Positions 10,564 through 58,975 of a DNA stretch of 64,000 nt are shown piece after piece (the stretch's first letter is position 1; every line of letters starts with the position of its first letter). Source of the stretch: an uncultured Desulfobacteraceae bacterium (GTDB lineage: Bacteria > Desulfobacterota > DSM-4660 > Desulfatiglandales > Desulfatiglandaceae); NCBI GenBank assembly GCA_964412835.1, contig CAYPQJ010000002.1, forward strand, positions 2,006-66,005. The letters are read 5' to 3'. The translations under genes were made by a program, and so were the position numbers. The notes beneath the pieces were generated by a model that was given only the letters and a program-made list of their open reading frames with translations, did no database searches and had not been told where the DNA came from.

Positions 10564-10918
10564 AATGACACCCTCCTTTCAAAAATTTCACATCGTTCCA
10601 GACTTCGGGTACCACTTTGACAAATGGGTCTTTCCTTTAGCACAAAACAGGCCCGAAAAAAATGGACGCTTTATGATGGTCGCATAATAAGCTGTTTTTC
10701 CTTGAAGTCAACCCTCTATGTAAATTGAACAGTGTCGTCTCCGCATAACGACACGCATTTCGTCCAAAAGCTTCATGGCAATACGTTGTTTCAGGGTTGA
10801 CTTTTTGAATGGAGTTTACATTAGATATTCGATATTGTAAACAAGTAATTCTGCCTGATAATCAATGGCTATGCGTACAGAATTATGAAAAAGAAAGCTA
10901 ATTGGAAGGAAGGAAAAT

Positions 10919-11230
10919 ATGAAATTACTATTTATTATATCCACTGATGATGCTGAAACAATTTATAATGCAATCAGATTGGCTAATGTTGCTGTGAAAA
11001 AAGACGATGAAGTGAGCGTTTTCATGCTCGGTAAAGGCGTTCTTTATGAGAAAAGCAGCAACGATCAGTTCGATGTAATTGGACAGGCCAATCAATTCGA
11101 GGGAGACTTTTATGTCTGAGGGGTGTGTATGAAATCCCACGGTCTGGTGGGATCGAGCTCATGCCCTATTGCCTGGATGGATGATCTTTATGAACTGTCC
11201 ATGGAAGCTGACAAGGTTTTTACATTTTGA
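10919..11230 (+). CDS. DsrE/DsrF-like sulfur-relay family selenoprotein (in-frame UGA at 11117-11119 read as Sec)
   Basis: Track ORF 10919-11119 stops at TGA, but the same frame continues 36 codons to TGA at 11228-11230. The joined product is ...QFEGDFYV-U-GVCMKSHGLVGSSSCPIAWMDDLYELSMEADKVFTF. It has the DsrE-family C-G-x-C motif position and a ...DKV(L/F)TF tail. A SECIS-like hairpin follows the UGA. Confidence 0.8.
11127..11164 (+). promoter_or_regulatory. Candidate bacterial SECIS element
   Basis: Lower stem GTATGA (11127-11132) pairs with TCATGC (11159-11164), including one G-U pair. Upper stem ATCCCAC (11134-11140) pairs with GTGGGAT (11147-11153). Apical loop GGTCTG. The element starts 8 nt after the UGA. 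Confidence 0.55.
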
Positions 11231-39003: not shown

Positions 39004-40632
39004 ATGAAAACCTTTTCCGGAAATATTGTGGATGTGGTGAACGGCGAGATTTTCCCGGGAACCATTGACATAAGGAATGGAAAAATCCATGACATAAAAC
39101 GCCATAACCAGACCTATCAGCACTTCATCACGCCGGGATTCATTGACGCTCACGTCCACATTGAAAGTGCCATGATGCCGCCTTCCGAATTTGCTCGCAT
39201 CGCCGTGGCCCACGGCACGGTTGCCGCCGTATGCGATCCCCACGAGATTGCCAATGTGCTGGGGGTTCAGGGTGTAAAATACATGATGGAAAATGCTGTC
39301 GGGGTTCCCATGAAATTCTACTTTTCCGCCCCTTCCTGCGTTCCGGCCACCAATTTCGAAACCAGTGGGGCGCGGCTGACCCTGGAAGACACGGAAACCC
39401 TTCTGGAAATGCCCGAAATCAAATTTCTGGGGGAAATGATGAATTTCCCGGGCGTCATTTATGACGACCCGGAGGTCTTGAAGAAACTGGAGATGGCAAA
39501 AGCGCACCACAAGGCCATTGACGGACATTCTCCGGGGCTGGGTGGCGATGATCTCAAAAAATATATTGCCGCGGGGATTACGACGGACCATGAGTGTTTC
39601 ACCATGGACGAGGCACTGGAAAAGCTTTCCCTGGGCATGAGAATCCTAATCCGTGAAGGATCTGCGGTTCAAAACTTTGATGACCTGATCCCCATCGCGG
39701 ATGAGCACTACCGGAACTGTATGTTCTGTTCGGACGATAAGCACCCGGATGACCTTCAGAAAGGGCATATCAACGATCTGGTCAAACGAGCCCTTGATAG
39801 GGACCTGGACAAAATGAAAGTCCTCCGGATGGCCTGCATCAATCCCGTGACCCATTACGGCCTGGACGTGGGATGCCTTCAAAAAGGAGACCCGGCGGAT
39901 TTTCTCATCATCGATGACTTTGACCGGTTGCGGATTCAGCAGACCGTGATTCAGGGGGAAATTGTCGCGGAGAACGGCCGTAGCCTGCTGCCCCGGAAAC
40001 CGGCCGGGATCATCAACCGGTTTGCCGCAAACCCCAAGAAACCGGAAGACTTTTCCGTGCCCCATAAAAACCGGCCGGTCCACATCATGGATGTGATTGA
40101 CAGCCAGCTGATCACGCGTAAATCCTCTGACACATTGGAATCTTTAAACGGCTCTCCGGCATGTAATCTCGAAAAAGACATCCTCAAGATCGCCGTGGTC
40201 AATCGATATGAAGACCGTAAACCGGCCATCGGTTTTGTCCGAAACTTCGGTTTAAAACAGGGCGCCATTGCGGGTTCCATTGCCCACGACTCCCACAACA
40301 TTATCGCCGTGGGGACCACCGATGAGGAGATTTGCAGCGCCGTAAACCTCATCATCGCCAACAAGGGCGGCATCTGTGCGGTGTGTGAAACAAAAAACAT
40401 TCGGGAAATCCTACCCCTGCCCATTGCAGGACTCATGAGTGATAAAAATTTTGAGACCATCGCCCGCAAATATACCCGGCTTGACACCCTGGCAAAAGAG
40501 ATGGGATCCACTTTGCACGCGCCGTTTATGACCCTCTCCTTTATGGCGCTCCTGGTTATTCCGGAAATAAAATTGAGTGACAAGGGGCTATTTGATGGCA
40601 CCCGCTTTGAATTCATGGATCTTTTTTCTTAA
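39004..40632 (+). CDS. ade: Adenine deaminase
   Basis: 542 aa. PGFIDAHVHIESAMM, HGTVAAVCDPHEIANV, GITTDHEC, SIAHDSHNIIAVG. Confidence 0.9.
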   Translation: MKTFSGNIVDVVNGEIFPGTIDIRNGKIHDIKRHNQTYQHFITPGFIDAHVHIESAMMPPSEFARIAVAHGTVAAVCDPHEIANVLGVQGVKYMMENAVGVPMKFYFSAPSCVPATNFETSGARLTLEDTETLLEMPEIKFLGEMMNFPGVIYDDPEVLKKLEMAKAHHKAIDGHSPGLGGDDLKKYIAAGITTDHECFTMDEALEKLSLGMRILIREGSAVQNFDDLIPIADEHYRNCMFCSDDKHPDDLQKGHINDLVKRALDRDLDKMKVLRMACINPVTHYGLDVGCLQKGDPADFLIIDDFDRLRIQQTVIQGEIVAENGRSLLPRKPAGIINRFAANPKKPEDFSVPHKNRPVHIMDVIDSQLITRKSSDTLESLNGSPACNLEKDILKIAVVNRYEDRKPAIGFVRNFGLKQGAIAGSIAHDSHNIIAVGTTDEEICSAVNLIIANKGGICAVCETKNIREILPLPIAGLMSDKNFETIARKYTRLDTLAKEMGSTLHAPFMTLSFMALLVIPEIKLSDKGLFDGTRFEFMDLFS

Positions 40633-43447
40633 TTTCCTCCACCCTCACGGGAATCTCCTCCAGATCCAACCCCACCGCATCCCTGACGGCGTTCAGCACC
40701 GCCGGTGCAATGGGGACAACGGGCAACTCCCCGATCCCCTTGGCGCCCATGGGTCCCAAAGGATCCGGCACTTCCACGATAAGGGTTTCAATGGGGGGCG
40801 TATCGGTGGTTCGCGGCAAGTGATAGCGGTCAAAATTATCATTTTGAATGACACCCTCCACCACGTTGATCCGTTCCTTGAAACACCAACCCAGACCCAT
40901 GGCCACCCCCCCCTGCACCTGCCCCACGATCCCGGATGGATTGATGGCTTTCCCCACGTCCTGGGCCACCGCTACCTTTAAAACGCGAACACGCCCGGTT
41001 TTCTCGTTGACCGCCACCGCCACCGCCGCAGCCACATAACCCAGTGACGGTAAAATACGCTGATCAGGCCCGATTTCCGTGACGATTTGGGGGGGAAACA
41101 TGTTTTTCACCGGAGGCGTATAGATTTCGTTAACGGTGGGCAATTGACCCGACCCCGCACATTTTTGCGCCAGATCCTCAAAAGAAATAAACGCTCCGTC
41201 ATGGCGTTTCTCCCCGACCCCATCTGTTTTCAATACCAGAGAATCCAAAGGTTTTTGGAGCACCTGGGCCGCTGATTGGACCAGTTGTCTCTTGAACTTC
41301 ACCGCGGCCCGCAAGATGGCGCCGCCCGTTAGAAATACCTGCTGGCTGGCGCTGGTGAGCATTCGTGAGGTGGTATGGTCCGTGGATCCGGGGATAATCC
41401 GAATCCGGAGCATTGGTAAATCCAGCGCCTGGGCCGTAATGCGGCTCAAGGCATCCACCAGGCCCTGACCCAGTTCGCATCCTCCGGTATACACTTCAAA
41501 AATCCCGTTTTCGTCCAGGCGAAGGGTCACATCCGTGCTCCCCTCGGGAATCATGGTGGGGGTGCTGCTGTTTTTATACCCGGCGGCAAGACCAATCCCC
41601 AGCTTTTCCCCGCTTGGAACCCGCACGTCCGAGCGCATGGCCTTAATCACCGGCAAAAGGGATTCCAGGCACGCTTTCACCCCCACATCAGCCCCCATGA
41701 CCTGACCCCACTGGGAAACCTTGCCCATTTCCAGGGCATTTTTCATGCGCACATCCATGGGATCCAATCCCAGTCGGCGGGCCAACCGGTCCATCTGACA
41801 TTCCATGGCCAGGCACACCTGCGGAACCCCGAAACCGCGCATGGCACCCGATGTGGGGTTGTTGGTATAGGCGGCGGTGACTTTTACGTCCACATGATTT
41901 ACCGCATAGGGTCCGGTGGCAAAAACAACGGCGTTTTCCACCACCGCAAGGGTGGCCGAATGATACGCACCGGCATCCGCAGTCCCGCTTACCACACAAT
42001 GGGTGAGCCGACCCTTCCCATCAGCACCGGTTTCATAGTCCAGAACAAAAGGGTGTCGGTGGCTGTGAACCCGCATGGACTCTTCTCGGGTCAACCCCAG
42101 GCGCACGGGTCTTCCCATCAAACGGGTTCCCAGGGCGCAAAGGTGCTGGATGGTCAAGTCACCACGCCCGCCGAAAGCCCCGCCGGCCGGAAGCGTCCTG
42201 AGCCGGACCCGGTCCTCGGGCAGTTTACAGATGGCGGCGATCTGGTCCCGATAGCTGATGGGCGCCTGGCTGGCCGTAGCCACCACCAGGGTGCCATCCG
42301 GATCGAGATAGGTGAGACAGGCTTCCGGTTCCATGAACGCCGGGTCTACCATGGGGGTTCGGTACCGGCCTTTGATTACCACTTCCGCCAGTTCCCGACC
42401 CTTTGCAATATCCCCCTTCCGGCAGGTCAACCGGTGGGCAATATTCCCTTTGGGCGTCAAGCGAGGGGCATCGGGGGAAAGGGCTATTACGGGGTCAAAA
42501 ACCCCGCTTAAGGGTTCATAATCCACCTTTAACCGGTTTGCCCCGTCCTCTGCGGCTTCGGGTGTTTCCGCCAGCACCAGTGCAACCGCATCCGCCACGG
42601 AACGGATTTCAGTTTCCGCCAGCACCGGCTGATCGGAAAAGATCACACCAAATGTCTTTTTTCCGGGCAAATCCTTGTGGGTAATCACACGGGTTACCCC
42701 GTCCACTTGTTCAGCGGGTGCCGGATCAATGGATCGGATACGGGCACTTGGAAAGCGACTCCAGACCACTTTCGCCCACAGTTGACCCGGCATATGAAGA
42801 TCCCGGGCATAAAGCAGCGCTCCGTTTACTTTCTTTTCCGATGCCCGGGTAACGCCCGCAAAACTGTAGTCGGGTTGTTTCAGCAGGTGCCGTTTGAAAT
42901 GGGGGTCTGCCGCTGCCCGTACCGATTCAATAATCTTCTGATATCCGGTGCAGCGGCAGAGGTTTCCATGAAGCCCCCGCCGAATCTCTTTTTCCGTAGG
43001 ATACGGGTTGTCTCTTAAAAGGCAACCGGCGCTCAATACAAACCCGGGGGCACAGTAACCGCATTGGAAGACCCCCAGCTCGGAAAAAGTTCTCCGTACC
43101 CGCAGTAGGGCTTCCGAACCTTTCCCGGATCGTTCAATCCCCTCGATGGTGATGACGTTCATCCCCTCCAGATGCCGGGGGTTCACCACGCAGGACCGCA
43201 TGGGCGAATCGTTAATCAGAACCGTACAGGCACCGCAAACCCCCACACCACACCCGTATTTGCTGCCGTGAAGTGCCAGATCCCGCCGGAGAAATTCCAG
43301 AAGGCTCATCTCGCGGTCACCCGGAAAAACCACATCCCGCCCGTTCACCCTGAACAAAACCGTGGCCGGGGGCCGGCAATGAATCGGCATTCGGGCCGTT
43401 GTCAGCCCCATGCGCTTCAGGAACTGCTGTTGTGTGAGGAGCGGCAT
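40613..43447 (-). CDS. Molybdopterin aldehyde/xanthine oxidoreductase family protein with N-terminal 2x[2Fe-2S], no FAD domain (Mop-like)
   Basis: GCGVGVCGACTV and CRCTGYQKI cluster motifs, followed by ~750 aa of Mo-binding domains (GGAFGGRG, AGAMRGFG). Start uncertain: ATG 43447 is used, ATG 43390 is also possible, and the track start 43483 is TTG. Confidence 0.85.
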   Translation of the reverse strand: MPLLTQQQFLKRMGLTTARMPIHCRPPATVLFRVNGRDVVFPGDREMSLLEFLRRDLALHGSKYGCGVGVCGACTVLINDSPMRSCVVNPRHLEGMNVITIEGIERSGKGSEALLRVRRTFSELGVFQCGYCAPGFVLSAGCLLRDNPYPTEKEIRRGLHGNLCRCTGYQKIIESVRAAADPHFKRHLLKQPDYSFAGVTRASEKKVNGALLYARDLHMPGQLWAKVVWSRFPSARIRSIDPAPAEQVDGVTRVITHKDLPGKKTFGVIFSDQPVLAETEIRSVADAVALVLAETPEAAEDGANRLKVDYEPLSGVFDPVIALSPDAPRLTPKGNIAHRLTCRKGDIAKGRELAEVVIKGRYRTPMVDPAFMEPEACLTYLDPDGTLVVATASQAPISYRDQIAAICKLPEDRVRLRTLPAGGAFGGRGDLTIQHLCALGTRLMGRPVRLGLTREESMRVHSHRHPFVLDYETGADGKGRLTHCVVSGTADAGAYHSATLAVVENAVVFATGPYAVNHVDVKVTAAYTNNPTSGAMRGFGVPQVCLAMECQMDRLARRLGLDPMDVRMKNALEMGKVSQWGQVMGADVGVKACLESLLPVIKAMRSDVRVPSGEKLGIGLAAGYKNSSTPTMIPEGSTDVTLRLDENGIFEVYTGGCELGQGLVDALSRITAQALDLPMLRIRIIPGSTDHTTSRMLTSASQQVFLTGGAILRAAVKFKRQLVQSAAQVLQKPLDSLVLKTDGVGEKRHDGAFISFEDLAQKCAGSGQLPTVNEIYTPPVKNMFPPQIVTEIGPDQRILPSLGYVAAAVAVAVNEKTGRVRVLKVAVAQDVGKAINPSGIVGQVQGGVAMGLGWCFKERINVVEGVIQNDNFDRYHLPRTTDTPPIETLIVEVPDPLGPMGAKGIGELPVVPIAPAVLNAVRDAVGLDLEEIPVRVEEIKKKDP

Positions 43448-43508
43448 TTTTTTCTTCCAAAAAACAGGAAACGGGTAATTCAAATATGAAGGAGGTCTCG
43501 TTATTCAA

Positions 43509-43922
43509 TCAAAGGGCTGAAAGGACCGGTACAGCCTCGGCTTCGATGATTCTTTTATCTGCGGTAACCAGGGTGAGATCATAAACCAGCGCCGTGGCGG
43601 CAAGGAATCGATCCGCCGGATCTTGATGGGGCAGATCCACCAGTCGACTCCGGATTGCCACTTCCCGATTAACAGGTGCTTCCCTGAAAGGGATTCGCAG
43701 AAAAATATTACGCACTGCTTTGATACTGTCACCTTGAAATAAAATGCGTTTCTTTTCAGTAAGCAACAAAATTTCCCAAACGCTGATCGGTGAAAACCAG
43801 AGTGTATTTTCGAGATCCTCCAATTCACGGACAACCTTACGGGGAAGTCGGTCAGGCTCAGAGATGCTCCAAAGTATGATGTGCGTATCCAGTAGCAGCT
43901 TCAATTGTTTAATACCTCCCAT
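43509..43922 (-). CDS. vapC: PIN-domain toxin (VapC-like)
   Basis: LLLDTHIILWSISEP..., SPISVWEILLL, DPADRFLAATALVYDLTLVTADKRI. Confidence 0.8.
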   Translation of the reverse strand: MGGIKQLKLLLDTHIILWSISEPDRLPRKVVRELEDLENTLWFSPISVWEILLLTEKKRILFQGDSIKAVRNIFLRIPFREAPVNREVAIRSRLVDLPHQDPADRFLAATALVYDLTLVTADKRIIEAEAVPVLSAL

Positions 43923-47959: not shown

Positions 47960-48187
47960 ATGCAGCATGTGAGTAGGCTATCTACAAAAGGGCAGGTAAC
48001 AATACCAGTGGACCTACGGAAGGCCATAGGTATAGAACCTGGCGATATGGTCGTTTATGAACTGCAGGGAAAAAGCGTGAAACTTAAAAGGGTCGATCCG
48101 TTTGACGCAGCATATCACGCAGCGGTGGCGGAAACTCTTGAAGAGTGGAACAGCCCTGAGGATGAAGAGGCCTTCAATGATCTGTAG
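47960..48187 (+). CDS. AbrB/MazE/SpoVT-family antitoxin
   Basis: LSTKGQVTIPVDLRKAIGIEPGDMVVYELQGKSVKLKRV (swapped-hairpin barrel motif). ATG 47960 is preceded by GAGAGGTG. Confidence 0.75.
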   Translation: MQHVSRLSTKGQVTIPVDLRKAIGIEPGDMVVYELQGKSVKLKRVDPFDAAYHAAVAETLEEWNSPEDEEAFNDL

Positions 48188-48515
48188 ACGATATGATGTG
48201 GTCACCGTCCCCTTCCCGTTTGTTGACAGACCTAAAACGAAAAACCGCCCCGCGGTCGTACTCAGTAGCAAAGAATTTAACAGAAGCAACCACACAATTC
48301 TTGCCATGATAACCACGAAAAAAGAGCCGGCATGGCCGGGCGACTCACAAATCAACGATTACGCCGATGCTGGTTTACGCCTCCCATGCCTGGTCCGCTT
48401 AAAGTTTTTCACGCTTGATAACCGCCTATTGCAGAAAAAGATAGGGCATCTGAGCGAAAAAGATTCAAACAAAATATCAAAGCATCTATGTTCTTATCTG
48501 GTTGCGCACGGATAG
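48177..48515 (+). CDS. mazF: MazF/PemK-family endoribonuclease toxin
   Basis: RRYDVVTVPFPFVDRPKTKNRPAVVLS...ILAMITT...LPCLVRLKFFTLDNRLL. ATG 48177 overlaps the antitoxin 3' end by 11 nt. Confidence 0.8.
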   Translation: MICRRYDVVTVPFPFVDRPKTKNRPAVVLSSKEFNRSNHTILAMITTKKEPAWPGDSQINDYADAGLRLPCLVRLKFFTLDNRLLQKKIGHLSEKDSNKISKHLCSYLVAHG

Positions 48516-57286: not shown

Positions 57287-58975
57287 TTAATAAATTCCCG
57301 GATCCCGGTAGGAACCAAAAACATCCCTGAAAACATCGCAGACTTCCTGAAGCGTGGCGCCGGTTTTGACCGCATCAATGAGATGTTCCATCACATTTTC
57401 AGTACCGGAACAGGCCTCCCCTACCCTTTCAAGACTTCTTGCCACGGCCTGGCCATCGCGACTCTCTTTGACCCGGTTGGTTTTTTCAATCTGCTGCGTC
57501 TCCAGTTCCTCGTCGATTTCCAGCACATCAACGGGGATATCTTCTTTCTCTATGGCGTACTTGTTCACCCCCACAACCGTCTTCTCACCATCATCAATCT
57601 GCTTCTGATAGTGATAGGCCGCATCGGCGATCTCCAACTGCGGGTAATTCTGCTCGATGGCTGCCAGCATCCCCCCCATGTCGTCAATCTTCCGAATGAT
57701 TTCGAAGGCCTCCTCTTCCATCCGGTTGGTGAGGGATTCCACTAAATAAGACCCCCCGAGGGGGTCAATACTATTGGCCACGCCCGATTCTTCCGCAATA
57801 ATCTGCTGGGTCCGGAGCGCAATGGTGGCAGCCTCCTCCGTGGGTATGGACAGGACCTCGTCCAGGGAATTGGTATGGAGTGACTGGGTCCCCCCCATGA
57901 CCGCCGCCAGACCCTGAAGCGCGGTCCTCACCACATTGTTGTAGGGCTGCTGGGCCGTAAGGGAACACCCGGCGGTCTGGGTGTGAAACCGCATCCACAA
58001 TGATCTGGGATCTTTCGCCTTGAATCGATCTTTCATGATCCTGGCCCACATGCGCCGGGCGGCCCGGAATTTGGCCACCTCTTCGAAAAAATCCAGATGG
58101 GAGTTAAAGAAGAAGGAGAATCGCGGGGCGAATTCATCCACGTGCAAACCCCGTTCCAGGGCTTTTTCCGTGTAGGCGATGCCGTCCGCCAGGGTAAAGG
58201 CCAGCTCCTGCACGGCCGTGGAGCCGGCTTCCCGAATGTGGTAACCGCTGATGCTGATGGTGTTCCACCGCGGTACCTGGCGGGTCCCGAATTCCACTGT
58301 GTCCGTCACAATGCGAACAGACGGTTCGGGGGGACACATGAAGGTTTTCTGCGCTACAAATTCCTTCAGCATGTCATTTTGAATGGTGCCGCCCAGGATC
58401 TTTCGATCGATCCCGCGGTTTTCCGCCATGGCGATATACATGGCCCAGATGACGGCGGCGGGCGGATTGATGGTCATGGAGGTGGTGATCCGGTCGATGG
58501 GAAGCCCGGCAAACAGGTCTTCCATGTCTTTTAACGTATCAATGGCCACACCGCACTTGCCGCATTCTCCCCTGGCCTTGTGGGAATCCGAGTCATATCC
58601 CATCAAGGTGGGCATGTCAAAAGCGGTGGAAAGGCCGGTCTGCCCTTCCCGAACCAGGAGATGAAAGCGCTGGTTCGTATCCATGGCACTACCGAGACCC
58701 GCAAACATGCGCATGGTCCAGAGGCGGCCCCGATACATGGAGGGCTGCACGCCCCGCGTAAAGGGGTAGTCCCCGGGAAATCCGATATCGGTATCAAAGT
58801 CCTGGTCTTTCAGGTCGGCAGGTGTATACAGATCATTGATTTCCCAGTCTGAAACCGTGGAAAATCGGTCCAACCGTGCCGGTCTGGCGGTAAAAACCTG
58901 TTTCAGTTTTTTCTTCCAGGCGCTGTACTTTTCTTCAATATCTTGAAAAATCTTAGGATTATAGGTCAAGGCCAT
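57287..58975 (-). CDS. Acyl-CoA mutase large (substrate-binding) subunit, isobutyryl-CoA-mutase-like signature
   Basis: FPGDYPFTRG...WTMRMFAGLG...GLSTAFDMPTLMGYDSD...GTIQNDMLKEFVAQKTF. Phe and Gln occupy the positions of Tyr89 and Arg207 in methylmalonyl-CoA mutase. ATG 58975 is preceded by GGAGGAGG. Confidence 0.85.
   Translation of the reverse strand: MALTYNPKIFQDIEEKYSAWKKKLKQVFTARPARLDRFSTVSDWEINDLYTPADLKDQDFDTDIGFPGDYPFTRGVQPSMYRGRLWTMRMFAGLGSAMDTNQRFHLLVREGQTGLSTAFDMPTLMGYDSDSHKARGECGKCGVAIDTLKDMEDLFAGLPIDRITTSMTINPPAAVIWAMYIAMAENRGIDRKILGGTIQNDMLKEFVAQKTFMCPPEPSVRIVTDTVEFGTRQVPRWNTISISGYHIREAGSTAVQELAFTLADGIAYTEKALERGLHVDEFAPRFSFFFNSHLDFFEEVAKFRAARRMWARIMKDRFKAKDPRSLWMRFHTQTAGCSLTAQQPYNNVVRTALQGLAAVMGGTQSLHTNSLDEVLSIPTEEAATIALRTQQIIAEESGVANSIDPLGGSYLVESLTNRMEEEAFEIIRKIDDMGGMLAAIEQNYPQLEIADAAYHYQKQIDDGEKTVVGVNKYAIEKEDIPVDVLEIDEELETQQIEKTNRVKESRDGQAVARSLERVGEACSGTENVMEHLIDAVKTGATLQEVCDVFRDVFGSYRDPGIY

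Follow-up and report, generated by a model that had tools for sequence, protein, structure and literature searches.

We analyzed a stretch of 64 000 nt (the window) from an uncultured Desulfobacteraceae bacterium (contig CAYPQJ010000002.1) and identified on its plus strand a gene of 103 codons (10919–11230) which is interrupted by an in-frame UGA. The frame that starts with the ATG at 10919 meets a TGA at 11117–11119 and then stays open for 36 codons up to a second TGA at 11228–11230. We observed that the internal UGA is translated and that it is followed by a conserved RNA hairpin at the spacing of a bacterial selenocysteine insertion sequence (SECIS). The whole stretch is well supported as one gene, encoding a stand-alone DsrE/YchN-like selenoprotein of 103 residues, and the UGA is very probably its selenocysteine (Sec) codon. 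An initial annotation, made from the sequence alone, had described an open reading frame (ORF) at 10919–11119 that continues for 36 codons beyond its TGA; reading the window directly gave the same coordinates and an identical translation. The finding is a correct re-discovery of a selenoprotein family that has been catalogued since 2005.

Translation across the UGA and the identity of the protein

In a search of 5.8 billion proteins we obtained 1429 hits. Among the 120 best hits listed, most were calls of 66 aa ending exactly where the ORF 10919–11119 ends, and about 18 were full length. Scanning a single genome for each species yielded 225 relatives, and we examined the best 80 of them. These span Desulfobacterales, Desulfatiglandales, Desulfarculia, Desulfuromonadales, Syntrophorhabdaceae and others; among the relatives, cultured carriers are for example strain NaphS2, Desulfosarcina widdelii PP31 (NZ_AP021875.1) and D. 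variabilis Montpellier (NZ_CP159846.1), which are represented by complete genomes. In all 80 loci codon 67 is TGA, the extension comprises exactly 36 codons and the protein ends with ...DKVxTF; the 36 downstream codons, for which the initial annotation had asked whether homologues share them, are thus conserved as protein. When all 81 distinct Sec-form genes were compared, codon 67 was TGA in each of them and never TAA or TAG, while the real terminator varies (TGA in 37, TAA in 35 and TAG in 9). Codons 85–103 keep their amino acids while synonymous codons are used freely (entropy 1.28 bits), which points to selection at the protein level after the UGA. Judged from these sequences, members of the subfamily in several Desulfobacterota orders are almost always Sec forms. 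In five metagenome-assembled genomes we found two paralogous copies on different contigs (L014/L053, L051/L056, L024/L064, L033/L059 and L067/L074), all with TGA; two gene copies were likewise reported in the Olavius delta1 symbiont (PMC1976440).

For the residue at the UGA column we searched 1.84 billion cluster representatives for distant homologues, which are about 106 aa long and share 28–47% identity. In the alignment of 50 sequences column 67 is Cys in at least 90%, within the motif aCGTC, and the second cysteine (C70) also reaches at least 90%; the tail consensus of the 49 distant full-length homologues is ...SDKVxTF. The expectation that Cys-containing members would carry a C-G-x-C motif at this place, with its first cysteine at the UGA, and a DKV(L/F)TF-type tail was therefore borne out. 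By alignment, the distant Cys column and the UGA stand in the classical Sec/Cys correspondence.

Among the full-length homologues of our first alignment the column appeared as Trp in most, as Cys in two and as Ser in one. Four of the five Trp forms that were checked at the DNA level have TGA (L092–L096; P0002, P0006, P0009 and P0017), and the Trp in their translations results from genetic code 4, which the gene caller had selected for short contigs. The translations of P0006 and P0008 even pass through the real TGA terminator (...TF-W-YFFTS...). For this reason we rejected the idea that readthrough with Trp is programmed or that a Trp form is functional, and we regard such entries as further members with a Sec codon and not as Trp proteins. 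The code-4 artefact is systematic and could mislead surveys of Sec and Cys forms. A true TGG (Trp) was found only in P0013 (L003:2343–2345), known from a single contig in a single sample, and the close homologue P0014 has TGT (Cys) in both L001 and L002, which are independent assemblies (L001:1068–1070), where the gene sits between trpC (IGPS) and trpF (PRAI). Both the Cys form (L001, L002) and the Trp form (L003) retain the SECIS hairpin described below. Since they still carry this fossil hairpin, we take them to be recent derivatives of Sec forms.

The assignment to the DsrE family, which had been made from size and hallmarks, held at the level of both profile and fold. With U replaced by C, Pfam DsrE (PF02635) matches residues 1–103 on model positions 1–116 of 116 with 39.3 bits (gathering threshold 22.7). 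As this match runs from end to end, the domain depends on the sequence before as well as after the UGA. Among the NCBIfam models none matches the 103-aa product at E values up to 1. The AlphaFold2 model of the Cys form, calculated with 49 aligned homologues, has a mean predicted local distance difference test score of 96 and a predicted template-modelling (TM) score of 0.87; in this model residue 67 ends the strand 63–67 and caps the helix 68–73. Foldseek comparison of the model with the PDB matched Escherichia coli YchN (1jx7, TM 0.81), a Sulfolobus DsrE/DsrF-like protein (3mc3, TM 0.83) and Swol_2425, a ‘putative sulfurtransferase DsrE’ (3pnx), while a single-sequence search of the PDB gave a chance hit only. 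The family profile aligns with YchN (E = 7e-9), placing aCGTC on C-K-T-C, with a common DKVLTF end. The alignment with Allochromatium DsrE (2hy5) is weak (E about 1) and places the first cysteine on the MVV-C cysteine. In the DsrEFH and TusBCD systems this MVV-C cysteine of DsrE is the persulfide carrier. According to the model and the alignments, residue 67 lies at the active-site cysteine position of the DsrE/TusD/YchN fold, with Cys70 one helical turn further on.

A conserved hairpin at SECIS spacing

The RNAalifold consensus consists of the pairs 11120–11123/11162–11165, 11127–11128/11157–11158, 11130–11132/11153–11155 and 11135–11140/11147–11152. It contains the hairpin at 11127–11164 that had been proposed from the single sequence. 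In the minimum free energy fold of the window sequence (−23.5 kcal/mol) a lower helix (11120–11127/11160–11167) and an upper helix (11134–11140/11147–11153) enclose the loop GGUCUG at 11141–11146. This loop starts 21 nt past the UGA and its guanosines G25 and G26 are invariant; for bacterial SECIS elements, a distance of 16–37 nt between the UGA and the apical loop (PMC10778597) and conserved loop guanosines (PMC1088965) have been published. The earlier suggestion that position and shape are those expected of a bacterial SECIS agrees with these values.

The strongest signal comes from the use of synonymous codons in the 81 Sec-form genes. The synonymous-codon entropy is 1.32 bits for codons 1–66, drops to 0.35 bits for codons 72–78, which make up the apical stem and loop (11132–11152), and rises again to 1.28 bits for codons 85–103. 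Within this core His is encoded by CAC in 81/81 genes, Gly by GGT in 81/81 and Ser by TCC in 75/76. We further observed that the loop GGUC, including its guanosines, and the stem CCC/GGG are invariant in all 74 distinct 60-nt segments. GGUC also occurs in the loops of the characterized fdhF and fdhA SECIS elements (E. coli, Moorella). The named structures are paired in 83.5–85% of cells, compared to 33–58% when the partners are slid. Changes in the apical helix are rare and keep the pairing: one is a compensatory change from U-A to G-C (L081, L086) and one a change from C-G to U-G. In the lower stem we found GC/CG swaps at columns 9/44. As covariation is this sparse, the SECIS assignment rests mainly on the local synonymous collapse; covariation as a proof of the hairpin was set aside, there being too little variation to decide. 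The window has 146 in-frame TGA junctions, and the one at 11117 alone is in a non-shadow frame and has a strong hairpin together with a GGUC loop. A second SECIS-like hairpin, with the apical sequence GCCGGUCUGGC after an in-frame TGA (58850–58900, plus strand), was dismissed as coincidental because it lies in a shadow frame opposite minus-strand genes for methylmalonyl-CoA mutase and acyl-CoA dehydrogenase.

Table 1. Annotated parts of the gene and its upstream region (window coordinates)
Feature	Position	Strand	Basis
Complete selenoprotein gene, 103 codons + stop, DsrE/YchN-like, U67-G-V-C70 and C82	10919..11230	+	
Candidate weak sigma-70-like promoter, TTGTAA-16-GATAAT	10835..10862	+	9/12 consensus matches; a consensus match only, no proof of function
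Shine-Dalgarno-like GGAAGGAAGG, end 5 nt upstream of ATG	10904..10913	+	Sequence inspection
UGA codon 67, very probable Sec codon	11117..11119	+	TGA in 81/81 Sec-form genes; Cys column in distant homologues
SECIS element, stem with AA bulge	11120..11165	+	RNAalifold consensus (columns 4–49); 84.9% of cells paired (slid partners 35–54%)
Cys70 codon, second UxxC residue, putative resolving cysteine	11126..11128	+	Invariant in Sec forms; at least 90% in distant homologues
Nucleotide-invariant SECIS core, codons 72–78 AAA UCC CAC GGU CUG GNG GGA	11132..11152	+	Synonymous-site collapse
Cys82 codon (C-P motif), third conserved cysteine	11162..11164	+	Invariant in first homologue alignment and Sec forms; present in most distant homologues
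True terminator TGA	11228..11230	+	All homologues stop after ...TF; TGA/TAA/TAG vary

Alternative readings, proposed role and genomic context

If the UGA were a genuine stop, the locus would encode a truncated DsrE-like peptide of 66 residues, followed by a 33-aa peptide from the ATG at 11129 or by a non-coding remnant. Standard gene callers give exactly these 66-aa and 33-aa calls, the ATG lies only three codons past the TGA, and the window shows no Sec machinery. However, a stop codon would not be expected to remain TGA in 81 genes next to a terminator that varies freely, nor would the frame and length of a remnant be invariant in 80 species. Pfam and the AlphaFold2 model need both halves for one domain, and the Cys homologues are single fused proteins. 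A separate downstream start is not conserved either, because about 10% of the homologues have Leu (CTG or TTG) instead of Met71, and Met71 is not preceded by a ribosome-binding site. Taken together, we consider termination at this codon to be highly improbable. Slightly less improbable, but still very unlikely, is a readthrough of the UGA without selenium, in which a near-cognate tRNA-Trp, or Cys under selenium scarcity, is used and the hairpin stimulates readthrough in general instead of binding SelB as a SECIS. Among the stop codons UGA is the leakiest, the L003 homologue with its real TGG looks otherwise intact, and neither SelB nor tRNA-Sec was found in the 64-kb window of this organism. 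On the other hand, that TGG is the sole one and comes from one contig, the other four of the five Trp forms being TGA mistranslated with code 4, and a Sec-containing SelD is encoded by the organism of L003 itself. The residue that prevails family-wide at this column is Cys in CxxC and not Trp, and the invariant GGUC guanosines of the loop stand at a spacing typical of SelB-dependent SECIS elements.

The conservation of 11132–11152 could also have a cause other than a SECIS, such as codon bias, an antisense or small RNA element or a protein-binding DNA site. The apical helix barely varies, so that covariation cannot prove the pairing, and an antisense ORF of 70 aa overlaps the selenoprotein gene. 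Codon bias does not explain the local collapse, since on either side of it the gene draws, within the very same genomes, on all synonymous codons. The conserved sequence forms a perfect inverted repeat whose distance from the UGA is fixed, and its rare changes maintain pairing. The antisense ORF forms the largest neighbourhood ‘cluster’ across the loci, but this cluster was rejected as an artefact, the ORF being a shadow of the sense gene. We therefore give such explanations as little credit as a genuine stop.

Several observations weigh against recoding to Sec or limit what can be said about it. The evidence for selenium incorporation at the UGA is indirect. The single-sequence fold is not significant (z = −1.7, 10 of 200 shuffles being equally stable), and the significance of the hairpin comes from the comparison across genomes and not from the fold of the window sequence alone. 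Owing to the nearly invariant apical helix, the RNAalifold covariation term amounts to only −0.36. Rfam gave no match, neither for the whole window at gathering thresholds nor in a permissive scan of 11080–11230; as no bacterial SECIS model suited to the element matched, this null result carries no information. We found no selA, selB, selD or tRNA-Sec within the window and no tRNA-Sec in 40 related loci, so that the Sec competence of this organism is deduced from its relatives. Concerning the function, no neighbouring gene is conserved across the best 80 loci, the biochemical role is read from fold and motif alone, and YchN, the closest solved relative, is itself without an established function.

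With these points in mind, we still favour the selenoprotein reading and propose the following mechanism. The UGA would be recoded to Sec by the bacterial SelB/tRNA-Sec pathway, directed by the SECIS stem-loop inside the coding sequence, after which the remaining domain would be translated. The protein would most likely be a chalcogen-transfer or redox module. The selenolate of Sec67 may attack a sulfane-sulfur, selenium or disulfide substrate and form an Se-S or Se-Se adduct, which Cys70 could resolve as a selenenylsulfide or which could be handed over to a partner protein; C82 and the invariant H74 may assist in substrate binding. A more specific variant is a dedicated carrier of selenium (or sulfane sulfur) that works with YedF and SelD and is not a generic thiol oxidoreductase. 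Here, Se(0) or S(0) would be held as an Se-Se or Se-S adduct on Sec67 and delivered for selenophosphate synthesis or detoxification. We regard this variant as rather unlikely. It is hinted at because the protein is homologous to the CGXC domain of YedF and because its gene lies beside selD and yedF in two relatives; if true, a selenoprotein would act in selenium trafficking itself.

In these two relatives, selD followed by yedF, whose product (TIGR03527) is a selenium-metabolism candidate, adjoins the gene, on the same strand in L035 (L035:2927–4669) and divergently in L003 (L003:266–1970). Both selD genes carry an in-frame UGA in a G-x-G-U-A-S-K motif, and hence relatives do decode Sec. The adjacency was observed in 2 of 81 loci compared to about 0.16 expected by chance and is a weak functional hint. 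Deltaproteobacteria have the largest known bacterial selenoproteomes, and these include DsrE-like members (PMC1794560, PMC1976440).

Other recurrent neighbours were a cysteine-free ArsR-family (HTH_5) regulator about 1 kb upstream in 14 of 80 loci (e.g. L065:2122–2499) and a pair of ABC ATPase and ABC-2 permease in about 13 of 80 loci; neither occurs in the window. There, the gene stands by itself, with a divergently transcribed cold-shock gene on one side and an SBP_bac_5 gene on the other; the promoter candidate of Table 1 sits in the AT-rich divergent intergenic region (GC 0.35 over 10700–10999). The same intergenic region, with 35% GC, contains a terminator-like hairpin of 8 bp with a T-rich tail (10732–10754, minus strand). 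It would belong to the 5′ leader of the cold-shock mRNA, where it might serve in regulation. We found no second credible selenoprotein gene within the window. At 40613–43483 (minus strand) the window encodes a 956-aa molybdenum hydroxylase of the xanthine dehydrogenase/aldehyde oxidase type (Fer2, Ald_Xan_dh_C, MoCoBD); within this class, a labile selenium cofactor occurs in some enzymes. Two toxin–antitoxin pairs, PIN with PhdYeFM-like and MazE with PemK, at 43509–43922 (minus strand) and about 47960–48515 (plus strand), flank a multi-PAS sensor kinase of 1114 aa.

The main value of the finding is for annotation. It had been predicted that gene callers would truncate the gene, and indeed nearly every public record cuts it to 66 aa, with hundreds of such calls, e.g. 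SPD74770.1 (‘conserved hypothetical protein’), while some metagenome catalogues render the UGA at the catalytic position as Trp; more than 1000 protein clusters are affected by truncation or Trp mistranslation. NCBIfam has no model to rescue the full-length gene. Since its nucleotides hardly differ between the genes, the SECIS core is an easy marker for a covariance or hidden Markov model. The link to the C-terminal domain of YedF, together with the occasional selD-yedF adjacency, provides a testable lead on the role of the protein.

Comparison with known selenoproteins and DsrE-like families

The initial annotation had assumed that the family is probably not new, and earlier reports agree with this. 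DsrE-like UxxC selenoproteins were described by Zhang, Gladyshev and co-workers from Sargasso Sea data in 2005 (PMC1088965), in Desulfovibrio vulgaris in 2006 (PMC1794560; reference sequence WP_014524487.1) and, in 2007, in delta symbionts of Olavius that are related to Desulfosarcina, where three DsrE-like selenoprotein genes without Cys homologues were listed (PMC1976440). A review from 2026 calls DsrE-like selenoproteins ‘predicted with high confidence’ and functionally uncharacterized (PMC13188914). The knowledge of Sec decoding is not changed by our data, and the additions are modest: a near-universal Sec form in Desulfobacterota, an invariant SECIS core, the links to YchN and YedF and the widespread database errors. 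Whereas the earlier papers report one to three genes each, we observed the Sec form in 80/80 species-level loci examined (the best 80 of 225). The window protein shares with the published UxxC family the PF02635 domain, Sec as the first residue of U-G-x-C after an equivalent beta-strand, a SECIS just downstream and deltaproteobacterial hosts. By inspection, the Sargasso Sea sequence (IYI-U-GGC...EADRVVTF) and the window sequence (FYV-U-GVC...EADKVFTF) have the same Sec position and tail. However, the former reads U-G-G-C-A-E-A-R-G and has no third cysteine, while the latter reads U-G-V-C-M-K-S-H-G and adds C82-P, and for the lack of this cysteine we place the Sargasso Sea sequences in a sister subfamily. 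The members from D. vulgaris and Olavius were likened to the window protein by their published description only.

Among proteins of solved structure, YchN (1jx7), 3mc3 and 2fb6 are, like the window protein, stand-alone single domains without DsrF/DsrH partners, their length being about 105–117 residues, although YchN uses Cys instead of Sec and is only about 20% identical. Each crystal entry of YchN contains six chains. With DsrE of DsrEFH and TusD of TusBCD (2hy5) the superfamily is shared, and the weak alignment (E about 1) puts the Sec column on the persulfide-carrying cysteine. Yet DsrE and TusD lack the second cysteine of UxxC, and their similarity to the window protein is marginal. The partner genes of a heterohexamer relay are also missing: no dsrF/dsrH or tusB/tusC is adjacent to the window gene, and no DsrE-family neighbour recurs in the 80 loci.

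YedF's DsrE-like domain at the C terminus has been singled out for its CGXC motif by Lin et al. 2015 (PMC5322559). In hhalign (88%, E = 3e-6) our family profile aligns with this domain; aCGTCl falls on vCGTCl, and the DKV tails match. The window protein is nevertheless not a YedF because the N-terminal SirA/TusA domain is absent, and it has no match to TIGR03527. A further relative by description is SaoD (CD2369), a DsrE-like protein with an invariant CxxC and one further invariant Cys, which is stated never to be a selenoprotein (Haft, bioRxiv 10.1101/2022.07.06.499078). Going by the description in this preprint, SaoD and the window family have the same cysteine pattern. SaoD, however, belongs to the nine-gene SAO locus, which is absent at the window gene, where the DsrE/YchN-like selenoprotein is encoded on its own.

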